Counted from the first letter of the stretch, positions 1 through 63,297 are shown. The stretch is DNA of 64,000 bases from a virus (IMGVR_UViG_3300032954_000010:2453-66452), one strand, 5' to 3'. A program made the numbers and translations. The notes: a model not told the origin generated them from the letters alone.

Positions 1-451
1 TGGCACCATCCGCCACCTGTTTCTGCACGGCGGGATGCAGCTCATGCCAGTGCTTGCCCTTGAACAAATTATACGGAACGGTCTTGGCCGCGAGAGCGAA
101 ATGCTTGGCAAGCGAGTCGAGACCAACCGACAGATGATTGCCTAAAAGCAGTCGCGCCATGCTGAGCGTATCGAACCAGAATTTGGGTTTGATGTCGTAA
201 TGGTGCGAGAGGATCAAGCCGTCGAATTGTCCGTGATGACAAAGGACGGCATTATCTTCAAGCGCAATTTTGAAACCCGAATCGCCAAGTTCATCGCCAG
301 GAATCCAAACAGTTTTTGAATCTGGACGCCATTTTACAGCACAACCATGTGCTTCGAATCGTGTATCGCGAATGTAGGCTTCGGTCGTCATTTTCGACAA
401 CGTGTACTCGTCGTCGAAGTAGGTCTCGAAATCAAGCGTGATGATATTCAT
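1..451 (-). CDS. DNA polymerase family A, N-terminal 3'-5' exonuclease domain (runs off window)
   Basis: Manual translation MNIITLDFETYFDDEYTLSKMTTEAYIRD...HHGQFDGLIL...FDTLSMAR carries ExoI (DFET) and ExoII-like motifs; ATG overlaps the TGA of the upstream gene. Confidence 0.8.
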   Translation of the reverse strand, partial: MNIITLDFETYFDDEYTLSKMTTEAYIRDTRFEAHGCAVKWRPDSKTVWIPGDELGDSGFKIALEDNAVLCHHGQFDGLILSHHYDIKPKFWFDTLSMARLLLGNHLSVGLDSLAKHFALAAKTVPYNLFKGKHWHELHPAVQKQVADGA

Positions 452-801
452 TCAAACACAAGTCGATAACCGACGCCCCATACTGTCACTATTTTTATGT
501 TCAAGGGCTTTAATTTTTTACGAAGATTACATACAATAACATCGATCGTTTTTTCTTCGATTTCGCTATCATTACCCCAAACATTTGAAAAAATGGCATC
601 GCGCGTCGCTATTTTTGGAAAAATCTTAAATAGTGTTTCGAACATTAGTGCGTGTTGTACTGACAAACGTACAACTTTTTTATTGCGTTCGAGATGCAGC
701 AAATCAAACGTAACACCTTCTTTCGTTCGCGCATCTTCAAAAGGACGACCACACTCGCTGCAACATTTTTGTACACGAAAATCGCGTTGAACGTATGTCA
801 T
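448..801 (-). CDS. OmpR/PhoB-type winged-helix DNA-binding protein without receiver domain (CtrA-like)
   Basis: EKTIDVIVCNLRKKL...IVTVWGVGYRL; N-terminal CxxC. Confidence 0.8.
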   Translation of the reverse strand: MTYVQRDFRVQKCCSECGRPFEDARTKEGVTFDLLHLERNKKVVRLSVQHALMFETLFKIFPKIATRDAIFSNVWGNDSEIEEKTIDVIVCNLRKKLKPLNIKIVTVWGVGYRLVFE

Positions 802-1278: not shown

Positions 1279-3702
1279 GTGCTGCTCGATCACGCGCTCC
1301 AGTACGCCGGCCGCGGATGGCCCGTTTTTCCCCTATCACTGAGCAAGGTGCCATTTAAAGGCACGCACGGTCACCTCGACGCCTCGACGGATGTACAGAC
1401 TATCCACCGGCTCTGGAAAGGGCGCCCGAACGCCAATATTGGGCTTGCCACCGGGCGGATCGTCGTCATCGACCCGGACGGTCCCGAGGCATTCCAGCGC
1501 CTGGTGGCGATCGGCGTGCCGCACGGCGGCTGGCCGCGCACCCTGACCGCCAAGACGCCGCGGGGCGTCCATCTCTACTATCTGGCGCCGGACGGTATCG
1601 AGATACGATCCTACAACGAGCCGCGCGCCAAAAAGGGCGATCCCGGCATAGATATAAAAGGATCAGGCGGTTATGTCGTCTTGCCGCCAAGCAGGATCAA
1701 GAAAGGAACGGAATATTTTGAATATAAATGGCTTTTGGACGTTCCTGTAGTAACACTTCCGCAATTCGGTCTCGACTGGATCAATTCTCTGAAAGGCATT
1801 AAAGATCAAAATGTTAACAATGCTTTTTTGTCAACACCGTTACCGCATTATCTGGCCCAATCCAAGCTCAATACCCAACAAAATCAACAGACTATAACCA
1901 AACGTGCAAGTGCCGCGCTAGGTCCGGTCTGGAGCGAGCGAGAGGAGGCGCGTATCCGATCGGCGCTCGCCGCCATCCCGGCTGTCGGCTACGACCGCTG
2001 GGTGACGGTCGGCATGGCATTGCATTCCCTCGACTGGGACAGGCCGGACGGCACCTCCATCGGCTTCGAGCTGTTCGACGCCTGGAGCGCCAGCGCACCG
2101 GAGCTATACAGTCTCGACGGCACCGAGAAGAAATGGGCGTCGTTCGGCCGCAACGGGCGCGGCGGTGTCGGGCTCGGAACGCTTTACCATCTGGCCGAGC
2201 AGCACGGCTGGAATGGGCTGCTGCCACGTGCTGACGACGAACGGGAGGTGATGTCTCATTCCTCCGACACCGATGCCGGGCCAAATAAGAACGAGCCCCA
2301 TCCGGTATTCTCTACGCCGGGTGGGGCTTTGCTTAATGGGCAGTTCAATGGCGAGTATGCACTGCCCGACGAGCTGTCACGACCGGTCAACGACTCGCCG
2401 CTGATCGATCTCAACGCTCGCTATGCCTGCATCGGCGATCTCGGCGGCAAGTGCCTGGTGTTGGGCTGGGTGCCGTCCAAGGTCGACGACAGCATCAACG
2501 TGCCGTCGTTCCAATCGTTCAAGTCGTTCGCCGAGCGCTTCGCCAACCGCTACATCCGCGTGCGCAAACAGAAAGGCGAGGAGGAAGTCGAGGAGCCGGT
2601 ACAGATCGGCACCTACTGGCTGAAATGGCGGCGGCGCCGCTCATTCGAGGGCATCGATCTGGTGCCCAACGCGCCGGAGACCCTGCCGGGCAACATGCTC
2701 AATCTGTGGCAAGGCTTTGCTGTCAAGCCTGCGCCGGGCCGGTGGGAACGCATGCAGGCACACATCGCCGAGATACTCGCGGAAAGCAATGCCGATTGTC
2801 TCGATTACATCACGCGCTGGTCGGCCTGGGCGGTGCAGCATCCCGGCGAGCGCGCCGAGGTGGCGCTGGTATTTCGCGGCGACAAGGGCGCCGGCAAGGG
2901 CACGTTTGCGCACGCCCTGCGCCGCATGTTCGGTCAGCACGGCTTACATATTTCCAATGCCAAGCATCTCGTCGGCTCGTTCAACGCGCACTTGCGCAAC
3001 TGCTTGCTGCTCTACGCCGACGAGGCTTTCTGGGCTGGCGACAAGCAAGGCGAGTCGGTACTCAAGGCGCTGATCACCGAGCCGGTGCAGATGATCGAGC
3101 AAAAGGGCGTCGACGCGCAGCAGTGGAAGAACCGCGTGCATCTGATCATGACGGCAAACGCCGAGTGGGTGGTGCCGGCATCACATGACGAGCGGCGCTA
3201 TGCCGTGTTCAACGTGTCCAATCGGCGATTGAAGGATGAGAAATATTTTGCCGCGCTGTACAAGGAACTGCGCGAAGGCGGCTTGGCGGCGATGCTGCAC
3301 GATCTGATGCAAGTCGATCTCAAGGACTGGCACCCGCGCCGCATCCCCAATACGGAAGCGCTGCGCCAGCAAAAAGCGCGGTCGATGTCATTACAGGAAT
3401 CGTGGTGGGAGAGTCTGTTGCAGGAAGGCTGCATCCCGGCGGCGCCAAAGGACACGCCTGACATTGCGATGGCGCATTATCTAATGAACCATGCACGCGA
3501 CTTCGCGCCGCGTTTGAAAGATTTAAGCTCGGCCGCCCTTGGCCGGTTTTTGGCCGAGCATGGTTGCATCAAATTGCACCGCGCGACCGGCAACGCCTGG
3601 CGCTTCCCCGAGCTGCCGCAGGCAAGGGCGGCATGGGAGCGGCGTTACAATGGCTGGAGGTGGGAGATGCAGACCGAGCGGTGGAGCACGAAGCAGCAGT
3701 AA
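1279..3702 (+). CDS. Bifunctional primase-polymerase + PriCT-2 + D5-like/DUF5906 NTPase (primase-helicase)
   Basis: GWPVFPL, NANIGLATG, IDPD, TPRGVHLYY, GGYVVLPPS; YDRWVTVGMALH; Walker A GDKGAGKGT; ADEA; RRYAVF. Confidence 0.9.
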   Translation: MLLDHALQYAGRGWPVFPLSLSKVPFKGTHGHLDASTDVQTIHRLWKGRPNANIGLATGRIVVIDPDGPEAFQRLVAIGVPHGGWPRTLTAKTPRGVHLYYLAPDGIEIRSYNEPRAKKGDPGIDIKGSGGYVVLPPSRIKKGTEYFEYKWLLDVPVVTLPQFGLDWINSLKGIKDQNVNNAFLSTPLPHYLAQSKLNTQQNQQTITKRASAALGPVWSEREEARIRSALAAIPAVGYDRWVTVGMALHSLDWDRPDGTSIGFELFDAWSASAPELYSLDGTEKKWASFGRNGRGGVGLGTLYHLAEQHGWNGLLPRADDEREVMSHSSDTDAGPNKNEPHPVFSTPGGALLNGQFNGEYALPDELSRPVNDSPLIDLNARYACIGDLGGKCLVLGWVPSKVDDSINVPSFQSFKSFAERFANRYIRVRKQKGEEEVEEPVQIGTYWLKWRRRRSFEGIDLVPNAPETLPGNMLNLWQGFAVKPAPGRWERMQAHIAEILAESNADCLDYITRWSAWAVQHPGERAEVALVFRGDKGAGKGTFAHALRRMFGQHGLHISNAKHLVGSFNAHLRNCLLLYADEAFWAGDKQGESVLKALITEPVQMIEQKGVDAQQWKNRVHLIMTANAEWVVPASHDERRYAVFNVSNRRLKDEKYFAALYKELREGGLAAMLHDLMQVDLKDWHPRRIPNTEALRQQKARSMSLQESWWESLLQEGCIPAAPKDTPDIAMAHYLMNHARDFAPRLKDLSSAALGRFLAEHGCIKLHRATGNAWRFPELPQARAAWERRYNGWRWEMQTERWSTKQQ

Positions 3703-3709
3703 CTGCTCA

Positions 3710-3895
3710 TTAAGGATCGGCGGATATTCGGTTTATGACATACTCATTCAGCAAATTGGCAAGATCTTTCTGTGTTGACCTCAAAATATCGAGCTGTGCT
3801 CCATCAGTCGTGACAGCCTTATGGGCTGAAATCATATTTAGGATTGCACTGGCAAGCGCACCACCGGCTGTCGGGTCTTTCTGTGGTTCGTACAT
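3710..3895 (-). CDS. hypothetical protein
   Basis: 61-aa ORF with GGAGG RBS. Confidence 0.6.
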   Translation of the reverse strand: MYEPQKDPTAGGALASAILNMISAHKAVTTDGAQLDILRSTQKDLANLLNEYVINRISADP

Positions 3896-3933
3896 TTTCC
3901 CTCCAATCGTTTATAGCCCATCAACGCGGGCCT

Positions 3934-4092
3934 TTACCTCGTTCCTGATACTACCCTATCCGCAAGTCGAAGATCGGCTATTGCCTCCGCAATCAGTTTA
4001 CTAATTTCTTCTTGCGAGGCGTCTTGCAGCGTTTTTCCCTCGGCTTGGAGCTGCGCCATCACACAGACCATAACCATGTTCTTATCAATCAT
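3934..4092 (-). CDS. hypothetical protein (array gene)
   Basis: MIDKNMVMV...; ATG 7 nt after upstream TAG. Confidence 0.55.
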   Translation of the reverse strand: MIDKNMVMVCVMAQLQAEGKTLQDASQEEISKLIAEAIADLRLADRVVSGTR

Positions 4093-4099
4093 CTGCGGC

Positions 4100-4510
4100 C
4101 TATTTTGACTGGCGAGACAAAACATCATCTCGCATTTGCAGTGAGAGTGTTTTCCCCGCCTCCTCGACTTTGCGCAGCCGCTCGATCTCATTAGCGGCAG
4201 TCTCGCAAATTTCGTATGGTACGACGGCGCCGTTGTTGTGTTTCTTCGGCCACTCTGGGCCGAAAGCTCGTAGTCGTTCTACTATATCCGTCATCTTACG
4301 TGCCTCGTCCTCTGATTTATGGGCAACATTAAGCATGTCTTTTTTGTTCATCGTATCCACAATGCGTTGCGTCTGCTCTCTAACAAACTGTTCGTGCTCT
4401 TTGGTGTGGGGCGCGGAGAACGGGAAGGCGTCGCACACCCGAACGCCATCGCGTAAGATGCTTAGATAGCCGCCGTGCTTGCCGTAAGTATTATCGTGAA
4501 GCTGCCACAT
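4100..4510 (-). CDS. hypothetical protein (possible fusion of two array genes; internal MTDIVERLR)
   Basis: ORF track; GGAG upstream; ends in TAG. Confidence 0.6.
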   Translation of the reverse strand: MWQLHDNTYGKHGGYLSILRDGVRVCDAFPFSAPHTKEHEQFVREQTQRIVDTMNKKDMLNVAHKSEDEARKMTDIVERLRAFGPEWPKKHNNGAVVPYEICETAANEIERLRKVEEAGKTLSLQMRDDVLSRQSK

Positions 4511-4664
4511 CGAAAGTGCTCCCGTTAACCGAGATTACCCGTCCATCACTAAGCATGATTTCGGCTAGTCGCTCGTCAATCCAGCGCTGAAATACCGCGC
4601 CCTGAGCGACATAATTGTGCCACCAAACGACGAGATTCCCGCGCTTTAGGTCTGACTTTTTCAT
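4491..4664 (-). CDS. hypothetical protein (array gene, 57 aa)
   Basis: Manual translation MKKSDLKRGNLVVWWHNY...DVAASR*. Confidence 0.55.
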   Translation of the reverse strand: MKKSDLKRGNLVVWWHNYVAQGAVFQRWIDERLAEIMLSDGRVISVNGSTFDVAASR

Positions 4665-4672
4665 AGTGGCCT

Positions 4673-4840
4673 CTATCTCGTTTTTGACTGTGGCTGCTTT
4701 TCAGGTCGGCGGTCGGCGCAGTCAGGACATTGGACGGCGTAAGGTTCCCAATCGGCGTCATAGACGACATAGCCGCGCCCCTCGCACGTTTTGCAATAGA
4801 GCGGGTTGGGGATCATCTCGGGCTGCGCTTCGTGGGGCAT
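4673..4840 (-). CDS. small zinc-finger protein (array gene, 55 aa)
   Basis: Manual translation MPHEAQPEMIPNPLYCKTCEGRGYVV...QCPDC...; ends in TAG. Confidence 0.65.
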   Translation of the reverse strand: MPHEAQPEMIPNPLYCKTCEGRGYVVYDADWEPYAVQCPDCADRRPEKQPQSKTR

Positions 4841-4845
4841 CGGGG

Positions 4846-5028
4846 CTATTTTGCCTTAAAAACGGTTGCGTTGTCTTGGTATGCGGCGGCAACGCTTCCA
4901 GTTAGCGCCGCCATGTTAAGCAGTGCGACGCTTTCTGCATAGTTGCCATCCTTCGTCGCCGCATCAGCAGCCTCACGGAGACGCTTTGTCGCGTTCTCCC
5001 AGACCTTTGAATGTTCGTGTGCTGTCAT
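4846..5028 (-). CDS. hypothetical protein (array gene)
   Basis: MTAHEHSKVW...; ends in TAG. Confidence 0.6.
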   Translation of the reverse strand: MTAHEHSKVWENATKRLREAADAATKDGNYAESVALLNMAALTGSVAAAYQDNATVFKAK

Positions 5029-5036
5029 GGCGGGCT

Positions 5037-5204
5037 CTATATCCAGAGATCGTAAACTATATATGCGGCGAACGCGCAAAGACCCGCCAGCATTCCGGCC
5101 ATTCCAATAAAAAACACGTAACCGAAGCCTAATGGCATTCCTATTGCAGCAGTCGGGCCTGCAATCATCAATTCCGTTAGAATAATTTTTTCGACGGTCG
5201 TCAT
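5037..5204 (-). CDS. small membrane protein (array gene, 55 aa)
   Basis: Manual translation MTTVEKIILTELMIAGPTAAIGMPLGFGYVFFIGMAGMLAGLCAFAAYIVYDLWI*; hydrophobic; ends in TAG. Confidence 0.6.
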   Translation of the reverse strand: MTTVEKIILTELMIAGPTAAIGMPLGFGYVFFIGMAGMLAGLCAFAAYIVYDLWI

Positions 5205-5211
5205 AACCGGC

Positions 5212-5490
5212 CTATCGCTCCAGAACTGGAGTTTCGCTCAGAGCGTCGATCATATTGAGAAGATCAAGCCCTTTCGCAATGCGCTTTGCCTCTTCCAGGC
5301 CGTCTGTGATGCAAACGGTGAAATATTCACCGGAGTAGCAAACACCTTCCTTACCGCGGTCTGGATTGGGGCCAAGCACGGCGAAATGAAATTCACTACG
5401 CTGCTCAACCACATGGCGTTTACGCACCACCTGATAGTGCGTCGCCTTGTGCTGCTTGGGATTGGCTTCCTTGATGGCGGCAACTGACAT
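5212..5490 (-). CDS. hypothetical protein (first gene of left array arm)
   Basis: MSVAAIKEANPKQ...; AAGGGAG RBS; ends in TAG. Confidence 0.65.
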   Translation of the reverse strand: MSVAAIKEANPKQHKATHYQVVRKRHVVEQRSEFHFAVLGPNPDRGKEGVCYSGEYFTVCITDGLEEAKRIAKGLDLLNMIDALSETPVLER

Positions 5491-5521
5491 GGCCCGTCTC
5501 CCTTTTGATGACCGTATATAG

Positions 5522-5555
5522 GCACAGTCAATTTGACTTGTCAAGTAACCTGTGC
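5522..5555. promoter_or_regulatory. 34-bp imperfect palindrome with back-to-back -35 boxes (divergent promoter/operator)
   Basis: GCACAG-tcaat-TTGAC-tt-GTCAA-gtaac-CTGTGC; both inverted pairs share one centre (5538/5539). Confidence 0.7.
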
Positions 5556-5570
5556 TACCCGTATTCGCGA

Positions 5571-6137
5571 ATGAGCACAAAGCCCAATATTCGATCCCTC
5601 TGCCATCCCGTCGCCCGACTTGGCGAGGCGGCTCAACTCGCCGCGCTTACCGGGGAAATCTACTATTTCAAGGATCGAAAAGAGCTAATCCGCTCGATCC
5701 GGCCCGGAACAATCATCGAGGTGGTCGAGGCGTATCTGCTGGCGACAGACGGCGGACGGTCGGATTCACGAAAGCGTGACTGGCTGAAAACTGTAGACGA
5801 GATCGAGGACAAGGGCGGCATCATTGTCGAGATGCGGACAGGACTGCGCTCCGATAAGCCCAAGGAATGGCGGCAAGTGCAGGCAATGGCCTTTGAGCAA
5901 ATCGCCCGTTCCGGCAAGGGCCGCAATTCATCGGCCAACGGCAAGCTATCGAAGGGTGCCCCGCGCTGGAACCCGACGCCAGAGCAACGGGACGTGGCGG
6001 AGCGGCAATGGTTCAGCCGAAAGCACAAAACCGATGATGAGCGCATGGCCGCAATTCAGGATAAACTAGGGAAGTCCGCGCCGAGCCGGACGACAATGCG
6101 AAAGTATTTTGGCTCGCCATACGCGACCAGGAACTAG
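5571..6137 (+). CDS. degenerate serine-resolvase-fold protein with C-terminal HTH-like segment, catalytic motifs absent
   Basis: AQLAAL...DRKELIRSIRPGTIIEVVEAYLLA...DWLKTVDEIEDKGG follows the resolvase pattern but lacks YARVS and DRL; C-terminal PSRTTMRKYF. Confidence 0.55.
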   Translation: MSTKPNIRSLCHPVARLGEAAQLAALTGEIYYFKDRKELIRSIRPGTIIEVVEAYLLATDGGRSDSRKRDWLKTVDEIEDKGGIIVEMRTGLRSDKPKEWRQVQAMAFEQIARSGKGRNSSANGKLSKGAPRWNPTPEQRDVAERQWFSRKHKTDDERMAAIQDKLGKSAPSRTTMRKYFGSPYATRN

Positions 6138-6154
6138 AACAGCAGGAGATTTTT

Positions 6155-6331
6155 ATGAACCGACGAGAATTGCACGTAGCGGCGCGTTTGATATTTGCGG
6201 CGCAATGGGGGCCTTCCGGGTTCAAATATTCTACGAATCGCCGTTCAGATTGGCGCTCTAAGGATGCGCGCCGCGCCGTCGAATATCTTGCGACCAAATA
6301 TGATTTAGTCCGAAAAACAAAGAACCCGTAG
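6155..6331 (+). CDS. hypothetical protein (array gene, 58 aa)
   Basis: Manual translation MNRRELHVAARLIF...KTKNP*; AGGAG RBS; ends in TAG. Confidence 0.6.
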   Translation: MNRRELHVAARLIFAAQWGPSGFKYSTNRRSDWRSKDARRAVEYLATKYDLVRKTKNP

Positions 6332-6340
6332 GAGTTTGGC

Positions 6341-6745
6341 GTGGCAAAGACGGCTGACGATATCATGAACAAGATGGGTTTTCCTGCGAGCGAGCAAGGC
6401 CACTACGTCACGTTGCTTCGCGCTAGCATCGAACGCCAAGTGCGGGATCACGGGCTTGCCGGCGCGAGCTACGGTTCCTGGGCCGGCAACCCAGATGCGG
6501 AGGAACGCGCGCGGGCCTTCTTGGAAGTAGAATGGGCTATCGCACACGGGCACTCATATCAAACGGAATGCCTAGACGACTTTCCTATCAACCGTTATTT
6601 CAGCACGCGCGATATGCGCTGGCACTACGAGTTCAAGCCGTGTCGCATCGCGCCGTGGCTGCGCGATCAATGGCGCGTGCTTTGGTTTCACTTTCGGGTG
6701 ACGCGCGACCGGCTGCTAGGTCGCACCAATCCGTTCGCAAATTAG
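6341..6745 (+). CDS. hypothetical protein (array gene)
   Basis: ORF track; TAGGAG junctions on both sides. Confidence 0.65.
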   Translation: MAKTADDIMNKMGFPASEQGHYVTLLRASIERQVRDHGLAGASYGSWAGNPDAEERARAFLEVEWAIAHGHSYQTECLDDFPINRYFSTRDMRWHYEFKPCRIAPWLRDQWRVLWFHFRVTRDRLLGRTNPFAN

Positions 6746-6754
6746 GAGGAATTG

Positions 6755-6979
6755 ATGCCTAGCAATATGCCGCCAGGATATAGCGATGAAGGTAATGCGC
6801 CGCCCGAGCGCGGAGAAGAAACAATGCTCTATGAAGAATTGCGCGGTCTGTTCGATAAATACCGCGCATGGCTAACCAAGAATTTGGAAGATTTTTGGAC
6901 AGTCGAAGATCAGACGGCCGCCGCGAACATCTGCAACGAGATGGAAAAATTACTCGTCAGCATGGAGGGTCCACTTTGA
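6755..6979 (+). CDS. hypothetical protein (array gene)
   Basis: MPSNMPPGYSD...; AGGAGG RBS. Confidence 0.65.
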   Translation: MPSNMPPGYSDEGNAPPERGEETMLYEELRGLFDKYRAWLTKNLEDFWTVEDQTAAANICNEMEKLLVSMEGPL

Positions 6980-7158
6980 AAATTAAATATTGGTGGTCAG
7001 AAGATCGAACGTGGTTTTGCATTCTTATCGATGATGGTGTCAGTAAAGCAACTGTCAGCTTGACTCCATCGGAGGCTGGCGACTTGGGCGCGGAAGCTAT
7101 TGCGCCGCCAACAAACGCCGAAACCTTGGCCGTTCTCGCAAATACATTGAATACTTAG
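6976..7158 (+). CDS. hypothetical protein (array gene)
   Basis: TTG start overlaps upstream TGA, GGAGG upstream; ends in TAG. Confidence 0.55.
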   Translation: MKIKYWWSEDRTWFCILIDDGVSKATVSLTPSEAGDLGAEAIAPPTNAETLAVLANTLNT

Positions 7159-7160
7159 GA

Positions 7161-7367
7161 GTGTCGGCGGTGCTGATCAATCTATATATGAAAGTGTTGC
7201 GCTGGCGATGGGAAAGGTTGACGCGCACGACGATGCGTTCGGGCTTCGCCTATCTATACATGAGTCATTATCTTAATGAGGAGTGGGAGAAATGCATCGC
7301 AGACCCAATCCTGCGATCAAAACTCGGAATTGAAGTCCGCAATAATCCGAACGCAACTTGCTTTTAG
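7161..7367 (+). CDS. hypothetical protein (array gene)
   Basis: ORF track; ends in TAG. Confidence 0.55.
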   Translation: MSAVLINLYMKVLRWRWERLTRTTMRSGFAYLYMSHYLNEEWEKCIADPILRSKLGIEVRNNPNATCF

Positions 7368-7379
7368 GGAGAGTTTGAC

Positions 7380-7544
7380 GTGGCTCATTGGCGCAAGTGC
7401 TCAAAGTGTGGACAAGATTTTCAGGTGAGCTATGCCACGCCTGGGAGTTCTAAATCGCCAATGTGCGAATCGTGCCTCGTAGATGAACTTGAAAATTATC
7501 CAGTCTTGCCGCCGCGCGTTCGGCGTAGGACGGAGACAAATTAG
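7380..7544 (+). CDS. small zinc-finger protein (array gene, 54 aa)
   Basis: Manual translation MAHWRKCSKCGQDF...MCESCLV...; ends in TAG. Confidence 0.6.
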   Translation: MAHWRKCSKCGQDFQVSYATPGSSKSPMCESCLVDELENYPVLPPRVRRRTETN

Positions 7545-7553
7545 GAGAATCCA

Positions 7554-7748
7554 ATGCTTGAGATAGATCGCAAAGCGCAGCACCGATTGATGGCACTCGA
7601 TGCCACCAACAAAATTCAAGAGGCGGTCGGCCTCGACGACAAGTGGAAGGGACTAATTGAGAACACGATCTATACGCTGTGCGAGGACTGCTACCGGCGC
7701 GGCGTTCAATATCCGCCGCTAATCATTCCGCCGCGCGCTTACCGTTGA
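7554..7748 (+). CDS. hypothetical protein (array gene)
   Basis: ORF track; AGGAG RBS. Confidence 0.65.
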   Translation: MLEIDRKAQHRLMALDATNKIQEAVGLDDKWKGLIENTIYTLCEDCYRRGVQYPPLIIPPRAYR

Positions 7749-7765
7749 AACTTTAGGAGTTTGCC

Positions 7766-8077
7766 ATGACGGACATTTCTGGTTGGCCAGAGACGGTCCA
7801 CATAATGAAAACGCTGGACCGCAATCCCTGGACCGGCGAAGAACGAGATTTCCCAGTCGAGCGCATCATGGTGCCGCTGAACGAATATCAAATGGGCAAT
7901 CTGATCGACGCAATCTCGCAAGCAGAAGATAATGGCGATTGGTTCGGAGAGTTTTGCGCCATTGTGGCCCGGGCCATGCAGGTCGCCGGCATCAAGCAGC
8001 TAACAAGCAATCGGGGTCGCACCTTTACTTTTGAAGACGTGGCCTGCGGCAGAATCCGCAAATCGACTGACATTTAA
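7766..8077 (+). CDS. hypothetical protein (array gene)
   Basis: ORF track; AGGAG RBS. Confidence 0.65.
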   Translation: MTDISGWPETVHIMKTLDRNPWTGEERDFPVERIMVPLNEYQMGNLIDAISQAEDNGDWFGEFCAIVARAMQVAGIKQLTSNRGRTFTFEDVACGRIRKSTDI

Positions 8078-8087
8078 GGAGAATCCG

Positions 8088-8447
8088 GTGCGCGTGATCG
8101 TCTGTGGCAGTAGGAATTGGGGCGAGTATCCCGATCAGCGCGAGAAGATTTACGCTGCGCTCGACGCTATCCATGCCGAGACGCCAATCACGTTCCTGTG
8201 GCACGGCAACGCGAAGGGCGTTGATACTGTCGCCGGAACATGGGGCGAGATCAAGCAAACGATCTGCGTCTGTCCGGTCCCTGCCGAATGGTCTAAGTAT
8301 GGCGATCGCGCGGGGCCGATCAGGAACAAAAACATGCTCGGGCAGGGAATTGATTTGGTGATCGCCTTTCCTGGCGGTAAGGGCACCACGAATATGATCG
8401 CGCAAGCGAAGCGAGCTGGCGTTCCCGTTAAGCAGATAGCAACTTAG
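8088..8447 (+). CDS. SLOG/DUF2493 (YspA-like) family protein
   Basis: VIVCGSRNW, HGNAKGVD, AEWSKYGDRAGPIRNKNML, IAFPGGKGTTNM. Confidence 0.85.
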   Translation: MRVIVCGSRNWGEYPDQREKIYAALDAIHAETPITFLWHGNAKGVDTVAGTWGEIKQTICVCPVPAEWSKYGDRAGPIRNKNMLGQGIDLVIAFPGGKGTTNMIAQAKRAGVPVKQIAT

Positions 8448-8455
8448 GAGCGGCC

Positions 8456-9031
8456 ATGCGCGACGAAACGACATCCGAGCATATCGCGCGAGACATGCGC
8501 GAGGGTCGGTTTCCGCAGCGGTCGGAACCGCAACAAGTTGAAACGCCTGACGATATCGTTGGTCACAAAACGTTCGACACCGGAGAGACGGACGAGACGA
8601 CCGGATTCCCAAAGCTGCGCCATGAGCCATTGACGCGCGCCGAGGCAGACGCACTGTGGGATGCCTGCAAAGCCGCCGAAGCTGATCGCGCTGCGAGGAT
8701 GCCGGATGAGACGGCTGCACTCCGTGCCATGCAGGATGCCTACACTCGGCTCAAAGAGCTTGGATGGCGCGAAGGCATCTATTCACCAAGGGACGGCTCA
8801 ATCTTCAAAGTGATAGAACTCGGTTCAACTGGCATCTTCGATTGTGATTGCCGGGGCGAATGGCCAGATTGCACCTGGACGACCTACGATGAGCGCGACG
8901 CTTATCCATCGTCGCAGGCCCCGGCATTGTTCAAACTTTTGCCAGAAGCGCAGGCCGCATACGATGCGAAGATGGCGGCGGCGAGAGAACGCTACGCTGC
9001 CGAGTGTGCGGAAAATCATCACGATATTTAG
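8456..9031 (+). CDS. hypothetical protein (array gene)
   Basis: 191-aa ORF; TAGGAG junctions. Confidence 0.7.
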   Translation: MRDETTSEHIARDMREGRFPQRSEPQQVETPDDIVGHKTFDTGETDETTGFPKLRHEPLTRAEADALWDACKAAEADRAARMPDETAALRAMQDAYTRLKELGWREGIYSPRDGSIFKVIELGSTGIFDCDCRGEWPDCTWTTYDERDAYPSSQAPALFKLLPEAQAAYDAKMAAARERYAAECAENHHDI

Positions 9032-9040
9032 GAGGCCGGA

Positions 9041-9286
9041 ATGGACTGGATCGAGATTGTAGAGGATGGCGAGAATATCACATCCAAAATGCCGCCTGAC
9101 GAAACCATCGTCGAGGTCAAACTTAAGGACGGCACAATCTGTCCGGCTTGGTACTCGCAGAATATTCAAGAAGCGGGCGACTGGGATTTCGTGCCGATTG
9201 AGCCGGGGACAGATGAGCCTGATTTAATGGCCGATAGCCTCGCTGCGAACGTAGCCGCGTGGCGTCCGCTAAACGCCACGATATAG
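9041..9286 (+). CDS. hypothetical protein (DUF551-like pattern)
   Basis: MDWIEI...MPP...VAAWRPL; ends in TAG. Confidence 0.6.
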   Translation: MDWIEIVEDGENITSKMPPDETIVEVKLKDGTICPAWYSQNIQEAGDWDFVPIEPGTDEPDLMADSLAANVAAWRPLNATI

Positions 9287-9297
9287 AGGAGCGGATA

Positions 9298-9534
9298 ATG
9301 AATAGCGTATGGATTGCCATAATGCTCGTGTGGGGCGACACACCGTTCATTCTTGGCCAGCCTGCTATCGTCAGACCTCATGGCCCAGCGGTATTTGTCG
9401 AACGTGAGGCTTGCCTTGTTGAATTGGAGAAATGGAAAAAAGACCAGCCGAAGATTTTCGAGCGAGTGACGATGCCAAACGGCGATCAGTTCATTCCGCA
9501 AGCTTCTTGTTTGAAGTATACTATAAATAAATAG
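9298..9534 (+). CDS. hypothetical protein (array gene)
   Basis: MNSVWIAIMLVWG...; GAGGAG RBS; ends in TAG. Confidence 0.6.
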   Translation: MNSVWIAIMLVWGDTPFILGQPAIVRPHGPAVFVEREACLVELEKWKKDQPKIFERVTMPNGDQFIPQASCLKYTINK

Positions 9535-9543
9535 GAGCCGATC

Positions 9544-9741
9544 ATGGCCGTATTTGGCGAGTTCCTCGACCGCATATTCAGCAACGATGCGAAGTGGCCT
9601 TCCCGTCCCTGGCATGAAGTCCCGCCGGGATCACGCACACAAGAGCAACGTGATGCCTGCGCCGCTGCTGGTTATCGACCTTATATGCCCGTCAGCGGAG
9701 CTAATGGAGTTGTGATTCCTGGGCCGTATTCCAAGGATTGA
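9544..9741 (+). CDS. hypothetical protein (last gene of right array arm)
   Basis: ORF track; AGGAG RBS. Confidence 0.6.
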   Translation: MAVFGEFLDRIFSNDAKWPSRPWHEVPPGSRTQEQRDACAAAGYRPYMPVSGANGVVIPGPYSKD

Positions 9742-9765
9742 TGACCGCTGCTAAACAACTGAACG

Positions 9766-9960
9766 CTACTTTTCGTATTCCTCTGCCGTCATTTCGAGTT
9801 GACGAATGAATACATCGCCGTCGAATTGAGAATGCCATGGCGACTTAATATATGGGCATCCTGGGATTCTCATATCCCATTTTTCTTCCAACACCCAACG
9901 GCCTTGATCTATTGGGAATGTGCGGCGATAGATCAAACCCGGCTCGTTCTTCTCGGTCAT
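9766..9960 (-). CDS. hypothetical protein
   Basis: 64-aa ORF. Confidence 0.5.
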   Translation of the reverse strand: MTEKNEPGLIYRRTFPIDQGRWVLEEKWDMRIPGCPYIKSPWHSQFDGDVFIRQLEMTAEEYEK

Positions 9961-10094
9961 TGCTTACGGCCCATATACGATGCTGACTTAACCGTACATC
10001 ATTGGCGGCGGTAGATTAGGTTCTCTGCCCTCTACTTTCGCTCTTTTCCTCCTATCGACCACGCACCACCCTCAATGATTTCAAAGGGGTAGAT

Positions 10095-10109
10095 TTAACC
10101 ATTCGTTAC
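10095..10109. promoter_or_regulatory. possible CtrA box
   Basis: TTAA-CCATTCG-TTAC, one mismatch to TTAA-N7-TTAA; intergenic. Confidence 0.35.
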
Positions 10110-10211
10110 TGCTTCGTACTACGCTCAATTACTCGCCGTGTAAAGCGCGCGGCGACAGGCGCCAGATCGCCCAGCCCAGCGCCAGGCCGTAGCCGAGATG
10201 GTAGAGCACGG

Positions 10212-10496
10212 TCACGCCAGCGCTCCGTCCTTTTGCCGCTGGAAGTCGTCAAGGCCGGCATAATGTGCCCTCGCGGTGCGGATCGTCGCCTGCGGGTGGC
10301 GGGTCAGCAGCTCGCGGATCACATTGTCGTGAGCGGCCGAGCTGGCATATAGAGCGCTGCCGGCGGCGCGCAGCAGCACAAAACGGACCTTTGTATGCTC
10401 GCGCCACTTGATGCGGGCAAAGCAACCGGCGTCCGCCGCGGCGCGCTCAACGCGCTTGTCAAAATAAAGGTCGGGGGTCGAGAGGCGGATTTCCAT
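10212..10496 (-). CDS. hypothetical protein
   Basis: MEIRLSTPDL...; AGGAG RBS. Confidence 0.6.
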   Translation of the reverse strand: MEIRLSTPDLYFDKRVERAAADAGCFARIKWREHTKVRFVLLRAAGSALYASSAAHDNVIRELLTRHPQATIRTARAHYAGLDDFQRQKDGALA

Positions 10497-31500: not shown

Positions 31501-31519
31501 TACGTTATAGGAGTTGTCC

Positions 31520-31624
31520 ATGCGTCTCGTTCTCGCGATCCTGATCTGCACGCTGTTGACCGGTTGTGTCGACGGCAGCACCGGTAAGTTCTTCATCTGC
31601 GGGGTAACGACGCATTGTAAATAA
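31520..31624 (+). CDS. small lipoprotein (34 aa)
   Basis: Manual translation MRLVLAILICTLLTG/CVDGSTGKFFICGVTTHCK*; lipobox LTGC; AGGAG RBS. Confidence 0.6.
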   Translation: MRLVLAILICTLLTGCVDGSTGKFFICGVTTHCK

Positions 31625-31635
31625 TGGAGGGGGTC

Positions 31636-32349
31636 ATGCTGCTCGGATATGCCCGCGTTTCCACGACCGAACAGGCCGCCGACAACCGCTACTCGCTGGA
31701 AGGCCAGGAAAAGATCATCCGCGGCTACGCGATGGCCAAGGGTTTCAGCCAGTTCGATACCGCCGTCTATATCGATCCGGGCATCAGCGCCTCGATCCCC
31801 TTGCGCAACCGGCCGAACGGCAAGAAGCTTCTGGAAGACGCCAAGCACGGCGATACCATTATTGCCTCGAAACTCGACCGCATGTTCCGCTCGGCTTCCG
31901 ACGCGCTCAACATGGCAGAGATTTTCAAGGAAAAGGGCATCGATCTCGTGCTGTTCGATCTCGGCTCCGAACCGATCAATGCCAGCGGCCTGGCGCAGTT
32001 TTTCTTCACCATTATCGCCGCCGTGGCGCAACTTGAACGAACCCTCATTCGCGAAAGGATGATCGGTGGCAAGAAAGCGAAGAAAGCGAAAGGCGGCCAT
32101 ATCGGCGGGAAGACGCCTTACGGATACCGAGTTGTTGGCCAAGGTCGCGACGCTCGGCTCGAAGCGGTTGAGGAAGAACAAAGGGTTATTGCAAAGGTTA
32201 AGGAGATCGTCAGTGATCGGCCTTATCTCACGTCGTCATACACCAAGAGCCTGCTCGATGAAGCGGGGATGACGGCGCGCAACGGCAAACCATTCTACAC
32301 CATGCAGGTCCGGCGCATCATCGATCAGGTGCTCAGTGCTCCTCACTGA
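31636..32349 (+). CDS. serine recombinase (resolvase family) with intact catalytic motifs
   Basis: GYARVSTTEQ, DPGISA, KLDRMFR, AQLERTLIRER, GGKTPYGY. Confidence 0.92.
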   Translation: MLLGYARVSTTEQAADNRYSLEGQEKIIRGYAMAKGFSQFDTAVYIDPGISASIPLRNRPNGKKLLEDAKHGDTIIASKLDRMFRSASDALNMAEIFKEKGIDLVLFDLGSEPINASGLAQFFFTIIAAVAQLERTLIRERMIGGKKAKKAKGGHIGGKTPYGYRVVGQGRDARLEAVEEEQRVIAKVKEIVSDRPYLTSSYTKSLLDEAGMTARNGKPFYTMQVRRIIDQVLSAPH

Positions 32350-61204: not shown

Positions 61205-61690
61205 TTATACACGAGCAAATTCCCCAAAAAGCTCTTTGGCACGTTTCTTATAAGCTTGATATCCGGCAATTGGATCATCGAAGTCGCCCAAGTGAAAACG
61301 TTTGTTGTGGCTACCGACTCTAACACGCCATTTACCGTTAGGACGGCGCGTTACTCCTTTGAATCCCGAAGTATTATTGATTCTCAATCGCGTATTGGCT
61401 TGATTAAGAAAATCGTCGGCTAACCGAAGATTCTTCCATTTATTGTCGTGTTTGATCAAATTCTTATGTTCAACGTCTTCCTCGGGCATAATACCTGTTA
61501 CGTAAAACCATGCGAGTCTATGTCCTTTATACTCACGATTCAGAATTTTGATATGGATGTAGCCATGGGTATGCAGGCTTCCAGCAACATCTCCTCGTTT
61601 TCGGCGAGGTGAATTACGTTTCCATTTAAAATGTCCGGTGCGTTTATTATACCACAAAGCACCTAATAAATATTTATGCGTTAGTTTCAT
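61205..61690 (-). CDS. HNH homing endonuclease with AP2-like C terminus
   Basis: YNKRTGHFKW, HRLAWFY, EHKNLIKHDNKWKNLR, NNTSGFKGV. Confidence 0.88.
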   Translation of the reverse strand: MKLTHKYLLGALWYNKRTGHFKWKRNSPRRKRGDVAGSLHTHGYIHIKILNREYKGHRLAWFYVTGIMPEEDVEHKNLIKHDNKWKNLRLADDFLNQANTRLRINNTSGFKGVTRRPNGKWRVRVGSHNKRFHLGDFDDPIAGYQAYKKRAKELFGEFARV

Positions 61691-63297
61691 AGTGCCCCTC
61701 TGCGCACTGCGTCAAGCAATGCCCCTTGTAAACTAATATTTGATTCTACCCTGCGAAATATTTCTTGCTCAAAATTAGTTGCTACTACTTGATAAATTGA
61801 TACAGGATGTTTTTGGCCAGGTCGGTGCGCGCGTTTATTCCCCTGCTCATATAAACGACTTTTTTCGGTTGGGCCACACCAGATAACTGTATCCGCCACA
61901 ACAAATTCGTTGATACCGTGAGCCGTCGGTTGGGGGTCCATGATCATGACTTTAAAATCCGGGTCGGATTCAAAAGATCGAATAAGCGGTGCGCGATCTT
62001 TCTGATCGACTTCGCCGTTGATAATACCGCATTTCCAGTGCTTGGAAAGAATTTTGTATAATAGATGCACCACGCTAGTTAGGCTGGTAAAAATAAGAAC
62101 TTTGTGCTCGGCGCGTTTTACAAGGTATTTTATTTCTTCGTAGCGCGGCGAAGCATCAATTAAGTGGGTAGTATGATCGTCGCCATAAATAGCTCCAAGT
62201 GCAATTTGTAAATATTTGGTGCGTGCGGCTCCTTCATTTGCGGCATTGACCAATTCTCCAGACTTTAGTTCGATCTGCAAATCCCGTTTTAATTTAGCCA
62301 TGTGTTTTTCTTGTTCGACCGTCAAAGCGACCTTACGTATTTGTGGTGGCAATAATTCTGGTGCGTCTTTCCAAACTTCTTGAATCGAAAAGCGAATGGC
62401 TGGAACAAGTACACGACGGGCTTTGTCATATCCATCTTTACGAGGTAGCCATTTGAAGGATCGAGGCGCAACTTGGAACATTGTTTCAGCTCTAAAAGTC
62501 GTAAAGGATTTACCAAAACAATTGTTGACGAGTTTCGACAGTCCATAAGCATTGGCCGGGCTATTGCCGAGTGGCGTGCCCGTTTGGAGCAGTAAATAGT
62601 CGCGCCAACCGAAAACTAGCCGCGCGATTCTATGTCGTTTTGTGGTTGCGTCACAATAAGCATCAGCTTCATCTATAATGATTATTTTGATATTTTTATC
62701 ATTAGCGAGTTCAACAGAAAATCCAGCAAGTTCAAATTTTTTGCGTGTCAAGGCACCGACCCCAACCCCATCAAAATTGATAATTCCAAAATCGGGTTTC
62801 TTGGCGAGCAGTGTGCTGCGTTTGCCAGCGTCACCGTGTAAAATTTCAACAGACCGACGAGAAAGAAGCGCCTTAAAAATAGTCGATGCCCACACTGTCT
62901 CCATGATAGTCATCGGGCAAACAATAAGGGCTCGGCATTCGCCGGGCGGATATTGTGACATCAACCAATCAGCAAACCAGATTTTAGCAAGCGTTTTTTG
63001 CGTCCCTGGATCACTAAGATTAAATCCTTTGCGATGCACAGCATCGAAATTAGCCATTAGTTTTTGGTGTTCGCCTGCGACTATATCCGGCGGCGCGGGC
63101 CAATCGTAATTCTCGTCGGTGATGATGGGCGGTACTGGGTAATCGTAGTGCCGGAGCACTTGAGCATTATGCAGATTGAAGGGCACGGCGATCCGGTCGC
63201 GACCAATCGCTTTCGCCTCCGGCAAAGCCTGAAGCAGAAAAGGATTTTGCGTAGGATAGACGAGAACATTATATTTTTTGTCGTAGATGAAATCCAT
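61687..63297 (-). CDS. SNF2-like superfamily 2 helicase
   Basis: DPGTQKT (atypical Walker A), IIDEAD, QTGTP, HGIN, EQGNKRAHRPGQ. Confidence 0.85.
   Translation of the reverse strand: MDFIYDKKYNVLVYPTQNPFLLQALPEAKAIGRDRIAVPFNLHNAQVLRHYDYPVPPIITDENYDWPAPPDIVAGEHQKLMANFDAVHRKGFNLSDPGTQKTLAKIWFADWLMSQYPPGECRALIVCPMTIMETVWASTIFKALLSRRSVEILHGDAGKRSTLLAKKPDFGIINFDGVGVGALTRKKFELAGFSVELANDKNIKIIIIDEADAYCDATTKRHRIARLVFGWRDYLLLQTGTPLGNSPANAYGLSKLVNNCFGKSFTTFRAETMFQVAPRSFKWLPRKDGYDKARRVLVPAIRFSIQEVWKDAPELLPPQIRKVALTVEQEKHMAKLKRDLQIELKSGELVNAANEGAARTKYLQIALGAIYGDDHTTHLIDASPRYEEIKYLVKRAEHKVLIFTSLTSVVHLLYKILSKHWKCGIINGEVDQKDRAPLIRSFESDPDFKVMIMDPQPTAHGINEFVVADTVIWCGPTEKSRLYEQGNKRAHRPGQKHPVSIYQVVATNFEQEIFRRVESNISLQGALLDAVRRGAL

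Follow-up and report, generated by a model that had tools for sequence, protein, structure and literature searches.

The early regions of phage genomes hold their fastest-changing genes, many of which are thought to act in host takeover or against defences, and it is debated whether the turnover of these genes reflects random breakage with selection or exchange at short shared boundary sequences. Integrons, which are gene-cassette systems, depend on the tyrosine recombinase IntI, on an attI site and on attC sites, which are structured and roughly 60-140 nt long. The known small serine recombinases require half-sites of about 12 bp in pairs, and for Tn3 and γδ resolvase the res site lies between divergent genes. 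T4-type phages carry PeSL cassettes, of which Comeau et al. reportedly made a further study in 2014. In the available portion of the earlier account (Arbiol et al. 2010, PMC2839356), a repeated promoter-terminator motif, consisting of a sigma-70-like promoter and a terminator stem-loop, mediates the shuffling of small genes of unknown function, and mini-circles are shown. For Cluster K mycobacteriophages, the accessible sections of Pope et al. (2011, PMC3203893) describe SAS, a 13-bp consensus GGGATAGGAGCCC just upstream of the starts of unrelated genes, and the boundary-sequence model, as far as the excerpt of its source goes (PMC3029335), places mosaic joints at gene boundaries and proposes short shared sequences as the places of exchange. 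Here, we compare with these systems a block of 22 small genes at positions 3710-9741 of a 64,000-nt stretch of viral DNA (IMGVR_UViG_3300032954_000010, bases 2453-66452 of a 66,452-bp record; hereafter the window, in whose coordinates all positions are given). An initial annotation made from the sequence alone had read this block as a bidirectional array of gene cassettes joined by a conserved TAG junction, and had proposed an integron-like capture system.

We consider it probable that the block is one instance of a recurrent two-operon phage module with translational linkers, in which genes are exchanged at the linkers without a dedicated enzyme. The 22 divergent open reading frames (ORFs) proposed at the outset are real, 8 on the minus strand (3710-5490, genes L1 to L8) and 14 on the plus strand (5571-9741, genes R1 to R14). 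Both arms diverge from 5491-5570, and the block lies directly downstream of a primase/helicase gene (1279-3702, Pfam). Since 19 of the 22 gene models are letter-identical to proteins in a public collection (L5, R5 and R7 are absent there), they rest on more than our own reading, and the codon-position pattern (GC1 > GC2, that is, GC content higher at the first than at the second codon position) favours the minus-strand genes of the left arm over antisense ORFs. The start of R6 was moved from the annotated 7161 to GTG 7170, as in the public collection, the gene itself being retained; R5 probably starts at TTG 6976, which overlaps the TGA of R4. The arrays are about 96% coding, linkers making up 4.4% of module bases, and with 2-20 nt the intergenic gaps are too short to hold promoters. 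Between 3600 and 12600, 9 promoter-like sites were found for 6.5 expected; terminator-like sites numbered 15 for 10.9 expected and were not located at junctions.

The excess of TAG stops in the block was confirmed: TAG closes 15/22 genes (5/8 on the left arm, 10/14 on the right), with 4 TAA and 3 TGA making up the remainder. Elsewhere in the window, our own gene caller, a Markov/dynamic-programming program trained on long ORFs of this phage family, assigns TAG to only 6/71 genes, and the difference is significant for the whole block (Fisher p = 7e-8) and for the left arm alone (5/8, Fisher p = 9e-4). Inside the module the same caller predicts 13 genes, 10 of them with TAG. Outside it, junctions are mostly ATGA, TGATG or TAATG overlaps, which dictate the TGA and TAA stops found there. 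Across 147 other loci, at least six TAG stops among eight consecutive genes occur in 4/1230 gene windows, all of them in L082, a relative of the window, or in L044, a locus without any TGA stop (three-digit handles denote loci, as distinct from the genes L1 to L8). TAG showed no bias by gene length in control loci, amounting to 12-19% in each size class. The expectation that TAG moves with its gene was not borne out: of eight more distant R11 homologues from other phages, which align over residues 31-183 only, just 1/8 has a TAG stop (TAA, TGA, TAA, TGA, TAG, TGA, TAA and TGA), so that TAG is a property of the array and not of the gene.

Two of the loci named here have features of their own. 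The 23 genes called in L044 end in TAA (11), TAG (12) and TGA (0), and this phage may decode TGA as a sense codon. R11 is itself a mosaic, in which residues 31-183 are those of a widespread phage family, met in 8 loci at 40-77% identity, and the first 30 residues match other loci, L170-L172, at 80-83%; the locus with its closest homologue, L161, has TAG in 11/22 called genes.

All junction strings quoted in the initial annotation are present in the window, and junctions span 11-23 nt from stop to start. The right-arm linker reads TAGGAG, followed by 5-8 nt and then ATG or GTG. In 9 TAG junctions and 1 TAA junction, the stop lies within the Shine-Dalgarno site of the next gene, and the distance from GGAG to the start is 5-8 nt (mode 6) in 12/12 right-arm linkers. 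Strong pairing with the anti-Shine-Dalgarno sequence is predicted for 13/14 right-arm genes, the exception being R1 with none, and the mean pairing energy on this arm is -7.8 kcal/mol compared to -3.2 for random 20-mers. For TAGGAG, 8 occurrences in the 4.2-kb right arm compare with 1.4 expected, and a single one in the 45-kb late region with 11 expected. With ribosome-binding sites at such tight 5-8 nt spacing, independence of the right-arm junction from translation is not supported. Behind the TGA of R8, TAGGAG does persist out of frame at 7754.

On the left arm, the TAG stops are followed by GCCGGTT, AGCCCGCC, CCCCG, AGGCCACT or GCCGCAG and then ATG. The sparse Shine-Dalgarno signal ascribed to this arm was recovered; pairing is near random for 3/5 genes that follow a TAG, and overlap with a Shine-Dalgarno site therefore leaves the left-arm TAG excess unexplained. 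Linkers of both the sub-family GGAGTTTG(A/G)CGTGGC, found twice in the window and also in the 103-kb phage G002, and the sub-family TAGGAGCGGCC(A/G)TG, found in the window, L236 and L243, recur before different genes and in different phages. Statistics of junction similarity, in which pairs within the window were more alike than pairs of window and other junctions, were confounded by the shared TAGGAG spacing and were not used.

Cassettes of the block have been exchanged between unrelated phages, with breakpoints mostly in linkers. The 90%-identity cluster of L2 includes a member on a 103,399-nt contig (L229/G002) that carries the same module: its recombinase matches PF00239 (E 3e-31) and is 77% identical to that of L082, and TAG closes 8/9 genes of the recombinase arm and 3/8 of the other arm. 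Within 3700-9800, G002 shares exactly four discrete DNA segments with the window (Table 1), and the flanks of these segments are unrelated. The primase and two structural-region proteins of the window have no match in G002, although the DNA query matched there. The L2 segment spans GGCCGCAGATG to TAAAGGCC, with GGCC at both ends, and has the same limits in the contigs of run X2 and at a unitig break of run X1. The left end of the R8 segment lies at the TAGGAGAATCC linker and its right end inside R8, 30 nt before the stop; the R8 homologue of G002 stops in frame at the TAG within TAGGAG. The R12 segment begins with the T of the TAG that closes R11 (TAGGAGGCCGGAATG), and its other end follows TAGAGGAG; unitigs of run X1 break at 9058 and 9262, in keeping with a repeat common to the two genomes. 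The R14 segment runs from the (A/T)TAGGAGCC linker to 6 nt before the R14 stop, and a contig of run X2 aligns to this region from 9530.

In total, 6-7/8 breakpoints of the swaps between window and G002 lie in or at junctions, and all ends (4/4) of two further swaps, G001/L082 and L237/L248, lie in linkers, giving 10-11/12 breakpoints judged to be in linkers over six swap events. The differing identities of the four segments point to separate events. Contigs of run X1, the probable source run of the window, break exactly at the limits of the shared segments, with a G002-type continuation at the loose end 7717, which indicates that both phages were present in one sample. The prediction that cassettes change at junctions between relatives thus held for L2, R8, R12 and R14, whose neighbours differ in G002. 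A minimal site-specific crossover, the other half of the original proposal, is not supported: identity does not end at one fixed dinucleotide, and the exchange at junctions stands without the integron-like mechanism. Among the contigs aligned to 3700-9800, which drop rare forms, no joint or circle was found. In the G002 record, the first 50 bases recur about 1.9 kb before its end with an overlap that is not identical (L231, L234), which may be a terminal repeat or the assembly of two variants, and the recombinase arm seemingly runs across the ends of the record.

Direct searches with the block returned little. Nucleotides 3700-9800 gave zero blastn matches in the phage database, and scans of viral contigs with single proteins yielded nothing for the primase, R1 and L3 and a match of only 24 residues for R3. 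Primase relatives in the phage database reached no more than 41% identity by tblastn; relatives at 71-79% are P0002-P0005, and primase homologues were used to reach loci in viral, metagenome and genome collections. Comparisons among relatives were restricted to features wholly within one locus. Homology of the window to L088 (primase 61%) and L082 (69%) ends at the end of the primase gene, and that to L088 resumes only at about 10100, where the L088 block has nine other small genes (TAG 4/19). From this comparison of sequences, we take 3703-10100 to be a replaceable block. An inverted match between 3683-3698 and 10107-10122 (13/16) sits at both homology borders of this block; as about 0.7 such matches are expected by chance (a rough estimate of our own), it was not used as a flanking repeat. 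The primase and ORF 10106-10261 both end in ...STKQ(Q)*.

The same two-armed layout recurs in relatives with other genes. L082 has TAG in 7/9 genes, TAGGAG linkers and, as head gene, a small serine recombinase (PF00239, E 7e-36). G001:C2, a 60,439-bp contig binned in a metagenome-assembled genome labelled Hyphomicrobium, has a primase 65-67% identical to that of the window and a minus arm with TAG in 5/7 genes and linkers such as GGATTAGGCCCGATG, followed by a divergent recombinase 60% identical to that of L082. A search of viral contigs with a recombinase alignment recovered G002 and added 15 further loci (L236-L250) on contigs of 6 to 76 kb, all 15 with TAGGAG-type linkers behind the recombinase and TAG-GCC-type linkers on the divergent arm; the window shows this layout too, with the TAGGAG type on the head-gene arm. 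None of the 22 window proteins has a tblastn match in L082, G001 or L236-L250. Short linkers were collected from 19 module loci, of which 17 contributed. They start with TAG in 56/80 cases compared to 46/227 in control loci (p = 3e-15), and GGCC-containing linkers amount to 19/80 and 10/227, respectively (p = 3e-6). Two arm-specific junction types are conserved irrespective of cargo.

The recombinase arm faces the primase in L082, and the head-gene arm faces away from it in the window and in G001, so that the L082 recombinase at 4033-4662 (-) and R1 of the window at 5571-6137 (+) have opposite orientations relative to the primase. An inversion of the whole two-armed block, or its insertion in one or the other direction, may lie behind this. 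In the distant primase relatives L112, L114, L116, L131 and L132, a resolvase gene is found on the strand opposite to the primase and 1-2 kb downstream of it, and a resolvase together with TAG-rich arrays was not seen in these five loci.

The control region between the arms contains the palindrome TTGAC-TT-GTCAA, which occurs once in the window; extra copies that could serve as paired recombination sites were not found there. It aligns with the regions upstream of the recombinases of other modules, all of which carry TTGAC..GTCAA (for example, TGATGACCGTATATAGGCA in the window and TGTTGACCGTATATAGGCA in L239), and 5491-5570 may function as promoter and operator. R1 follows in the place held by a small serine recombinase in relatives, and the window has no intact head recombinase. 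The start context of R1 and the control region before it share homology with their counterparts at the recombinase genes of other modules. Database relatives of R1 number 11, at 54-95% identity; it has no Pfam match at E <= 0.01, PF00239 included, and no PHROGs family, and hhalign of R1 against the L082 recombinase returned a probability of 0.5%. In the AlphaFold model of R1, which is of moderate confidence (mean pLDDT 65), a resolvase-like fold with a C-terminal helix-turn-helix is predicted. The top 11 Foldseek matches of this model in the PDB are all serine recombinases, with probabilities of 0.96-1.0 at E values of only 5e-3 to 4e-2, and the best are γδ and Tn3 resolvase. The usual catalytic serine motif context of small serine recombinases is Y-x-R-V-S; an alignment of the 12-member R1 family retains residues R8 and S9 (arginine and serine) outside this context. 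R1 is probably a protein of resolvase type, diverged or replaced, with a role as DNA-binding regulator. Among sugar-pathway genes, 31624-32349 (+) encodes a small serine recombinase that is intact (Pfam Resolvase, E 7e-31). The head recombinases of L082 and G002 match it at only 27-34% identity, and the sole TAGGAG ribosome-binding site outside the module, at 31508, precedes it.

The cargo of the arrays is unrelated, as had been stated: among the 22 proteins, Pfam and PHROGs name R10 only (SLOG, PF10686, E 8e-15). Of the zinc-finger cargo listed with it, only a weak zinc-ribbon hint in L5 remained. R10 is a candidate nucleotide-binding accessory protein and has relatives at 37-42% identity in two distant primase loci, L017 and L021.

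Table 1 Features of the two-armed block and segments shared with G002 (window coordinates; SD, Shine-Dalgarno; RBS, ribosome-binding site)
Feature	Position	Strand	Length	Stop	Remarks
L1	3710-3895	-	61 aa	TAA	Final left-arm gene; own GGAGG RBS; exact public protein
L2	3934-4092	-	52 aa	TAA	Cassette common to window and 103-kb phage G002
L3	4100-4510	-	136 aa	TAG	Stop followed by GCCGCAG, then ATG; exact public protein
L4	4491-4664	-	57 aa	TAA	20-nt overlap with L3
L5	4673-4840	-	55 aa	TAG	Two CxxC pairs, weak zinc-ribbon match; start not in collection
L6	4846-5028	-	60 aa	TAG	63% aa homologue on same arm type of G002
L7	5037-5204	-	55 aa	TAG	Hydrophobic peptide (by eye)
L8	5212-5490	-	92 aa	TAG	First left-arm gene; GGGAG RBS
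Control region	5491-5570				Between arms; palindrome TTGAC-TT-GTCAA inside 5523-5545
R1	5571-6137	+	188 aa	TAG	Right-arm head gene; without SD site
R2	6155-6331	+	58 aa	TAG	Stop within TAGGAGTTTGGCGTG
R3	6341-6745	+	134 aa	TAG	Stop within TAGGAGGAATTGATG
R4	6755-6979	+	74 aa	TGA	Stop overlaps TTG start of R5
R5	6976-7158	+	60 aa	TAG	Putative start; stop within TAGGAG
R6	7170-7367	+	65 aa	TAG	Stop within TAGGGAGAGTTTGACGTG
R7	7380-7544	+	54 aa	TAG	CxxC motifs; stop within TAGGAGAATCCAATG; not in collection
R8	7554-7748	+	64 aa	TGA	Out-of-frame TAGGAG 5 nt beyond
R9	7766-8077	+	103 aa	TAA	Stop within TAAGGAGAATCCGGTG
R10	8088-8447	+	119 aa	TAG	SLOG (YAcAr) family; stop within TAGGAGCGGCCATG
R11	8456-9031	+	191 aa	TAG	Stop within TAGGAGGCCGGAATG
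R12	9041-9286	+	81 aa	TAG	Stop within TAGAGGAGCGGATAATG
R13	9298-9534	+	78 aa	TAG	Stop within TAGGAGCCGATCATG
R14	9544-9741	+	65 aa	TGA	Final right-arm gene
L2 segment	3929-4100		172 nt		98.8% to L229 5993-6164
R8 segment	7538-7717		180 nt		94.4% to L229 2208-2387
R12 segment	9029-9291		263 nt		100% to L229 528-790
R14 segment	9528-9735		208 nt		88% to G002:C1:200-407

In the mechanism that we favour, two back-to-back operons of very small, unrelated and promoterless early genes would be read outward from 5491-5570. On the right arm, TAG would supply the first letters of the next Shine-Dalgarno site, and a terminating ribosome would already stand on the next ribosome-binding site, which would couple the two genes. 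On the left arm, TAG, a GC-rich spacer of 5-8 nt (GCC... or CCCCG) and ATG may allow reinitiation after termination. The TAG excess would then stem from TAG being part of the linkers and not from the genes. Linkers of 6-17 nt stand between all genes as the sole non-coding places in the arrays and recur in other phages with the module. Single genes are exchanged there between co-infecting phages, as L2, R8, R12 and R14 show, most likely by general, microhomology-assisted or illegitimate recombination combined with selection for intact genes. R1 would most likely be a DNA-binding regulator in the position of the head recombinase.

Several observations weigh against this reading. Overlap with the Shine-Dalgarno site, offered at the outset as a possible full cause of the TAG stops, accounts for them in part on the right arm and not on the left: in control loci, TAG makes up 16/51 stops that overlap a Shine-Dalgarno site, not 9/10 as on the right arm, compared to 18/116 that do not overlap one. 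TAA and TGA fit equally before GGAG, so overlap alone does not force TAG, and translation leaves the retention of TAG unaccounted for. Behind the five TAG stops of the left arm, the pairing predicted for the next gene is weak (-2.4 to -5.8 kcal/mol), and we only infer a translational role for the TAG-GCC linker. One R8 breakpoint is intragenic, and the sample of swaps is small, with six events only. Linkers with a 5-nt tolerance cover 7.3% of the module, and the resulting chance of 2e-10 for at least 10/12 breakpoints falling there tests randomness, not mechanism; selection after random breakage would equally leave breakpoints in the sole non-coding spots. An intact serine recombinase heads the TAGGAG arm in L082, G001, G002 and all 15 loci L236-L250, a constant association that is not explained by exchange without a dedicated enzyme. 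Genes in loci other than the window were predicted by the same crude caller of our own.

The nearest alternative confines the linkers to translation: they would be ribosome-binding and coupling signals, swaps would be random, illegitimate events that survive at junctions by selection, and linker similarity would be irrelevant. This is a less likely account, although the tight, ribosome-binding-site-like spacing and the dense coding of the arrays agree with it. SAS likewise places a TAGGAG-containing motif before unrelated genes with no known link to recombination in the consulted sections of its description (PMC3203893), and illegitimate recombination is, in the excerpted source, the usual model for phage mosaics (PMC3029335). 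The linker families are, however, longer than a ribosome-binding site needs and recur across genes and phages; GGCC-containing linkers are in excess over control loci, and the preference for TAG is not accounted for by Shine-Dalgarno overlap. Decoding offers a different cause for the TAG excess, namely read-through or reassignment of TAG in early genes during some part of infection, which would fuse small neighbours. By coordinate arithmetic, 6/10 TAG junctions of the right arm keep the reading frame of the gene that follows, yet these cases follow from the layout of TAGGAG, 6 nt and start. On the left arm 0/5 junctions are in frame, the 64-kb window contains no tRNA gene, and the late genes, which avoid TAG, have open frames in the standard code; read-through is extremely unlikely and was rejected.

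That the linkers are cut and joined by a small serine recombinase that heads the module, supplied here in trans by 31624-32349 or by a co-infecting phage, is improbable in our judgement, and equally doubtful is the broader proposal of a serine-recombinase platform that captures single promoterless early genes, probably for host takeover or anti-defence, as an independently evolved integron-like system in which translational joints would replace attC sites and the enzyme would act in cis or come from a co-infecting phage. What speaks for such a role is that the recombinase gene, present in L082, G002, G001 and 15 further loci, is the module's one conserved protein and adjoins the control region, as intI does; that the linker core is directly repeated on the two sides of the cassettes (TAGGAG...GGAG, GGCC...GGCC, GGATTAG...GGATTAG); that the orientation of the module relative to the primase is opposite in L082 compared with the window and G001; and that the only other TAGGAG ribosome-binding site of the window precedes an intact resolvase. 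Linkers of 11-23 nt are, on the other hand, short for paired half-sites of about 12 bp, and no such repeat was found in them; identity ends at varying positions, and the window contains the central palindrome only once. The window combines the largest array seen and a recent swap at 100% identity, yet lacks a canonical head recombinase, and the distant primase relatives carry a resolvase without TAG-rich arrays. Neither R1, nor the head recombinases of relatives, nor the 31624-32349 resolvase is tied to swapping. We retain the recurrent two-operon module with exchange at translational linkers as the probable reading.

Two loci outside the block complete the description of the window. The gene at 448-801 (-) encodes a Trans_reg_C winged-helix domain of the response-regulator type (E 5e-16) without a receiver domain, in agreement with a separate remark made on it earlier. 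At 61205-61690 (-), an HNH_3 and AP2 protein of the homing-endonuclease type adjoins an SNF2-family helicase at 61687-63297 (-).

For the debate on early-gene turnover, the module provides clean material, as the same two linker types occur in 19 loci with wholly different cargo, and single-gene swaps reach 100% identity between phages that otherwise share nothing detectable here. Linkers and head gene together could be used to find such islands of accessory genes in metagenomes. Should the recombinase or linker homology drive exchange, the module would represent a new way of viral gene capture; if not, it would be a tidy example of translational coupling signals marking where mosaic joints survive.

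Integrons and the module both have a recombinase gene beside a promoter region, a putative one in the module, promoterless and unrelated small cassettes, and gain or loss by cassette. IntI, attI and attC are absent here, the first and the last as had been noted, and the recombinase that heads the TAGGAG arm of relatives is of the serine type and not tied to exchange. No Pfam or PHROGs family of IntI-type tyrosine recombinases occurs among the 22 proteins, and the repeat search found junction-sized direct repeats only, with no attC-like structured repeats. Without half-sites, attC-like repeats, a fixed crossover or a second palindrome, an integron-like site-specific reaction is not supported. 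Tn3 and γδ share with the module a small serine recombinase gene beside a palindrome-bearing intergenic region with divergent neighbours; the module differs in having no transposase, no terminal repeats and no identified res subsites, and R1 of the window in lacking the Pfam Resolvase signature. In the literature searched, supplementary tables apart, two-armed arrays with TAG linkers and a recombinase at their head are not described.

Closer parallels are offered by the phage systems. As far as the available portion of its description goes (PMC2839356), PeSL resembles the module in that a short repeated regulatory motif separates small genes, non-essential and without known function, within an early region that is hypervariable, and in that related phages differ by insertion, deletion or replacement at the motif; here, likewise, 10-11/12 breakpoints of the six swap events were judged to be in linkers. 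PeSL is, in the same portion, a transcription unit, whereas the module repeat is a translational joint of 11-23 nt inside an operon; linkers of two types, one for each arm, and the association with a serine recombinase set the module apart from PeSL. Its junctions are too short for a PeSL-type promoter and stem-loop terminator, and the terminator-like sites lie elsewhere. SAS, in the accessible sections of its account (PMC3203893), is like the right-arm linkers asymmetric, placed as a ribosome-binding site and built on TAGGAG, with the upstream stop sometimes inside it; the left arm does not fit. It is mostly found before genes more than 50 bp from their neighbours and is scattered, whereas module linkers join tightly packed genes. 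The linkers do not contain the 13-bp consensus GGGATAGGAGCCC and have only the TAGGAG(CC) core in common with it, in some cases as TAGGAGCC, and these sections of the account state no link of SAS to gene swapping or to a recombinase. Compared with boundary sequences, the linkers occupy almost all gene boundaries of the module, and unrelated phages have them in conserved form. The module is modular shuffling at conserved intergenic signals, and it differs in this form from PeSL, from SAS and from the boundary-sequence model.

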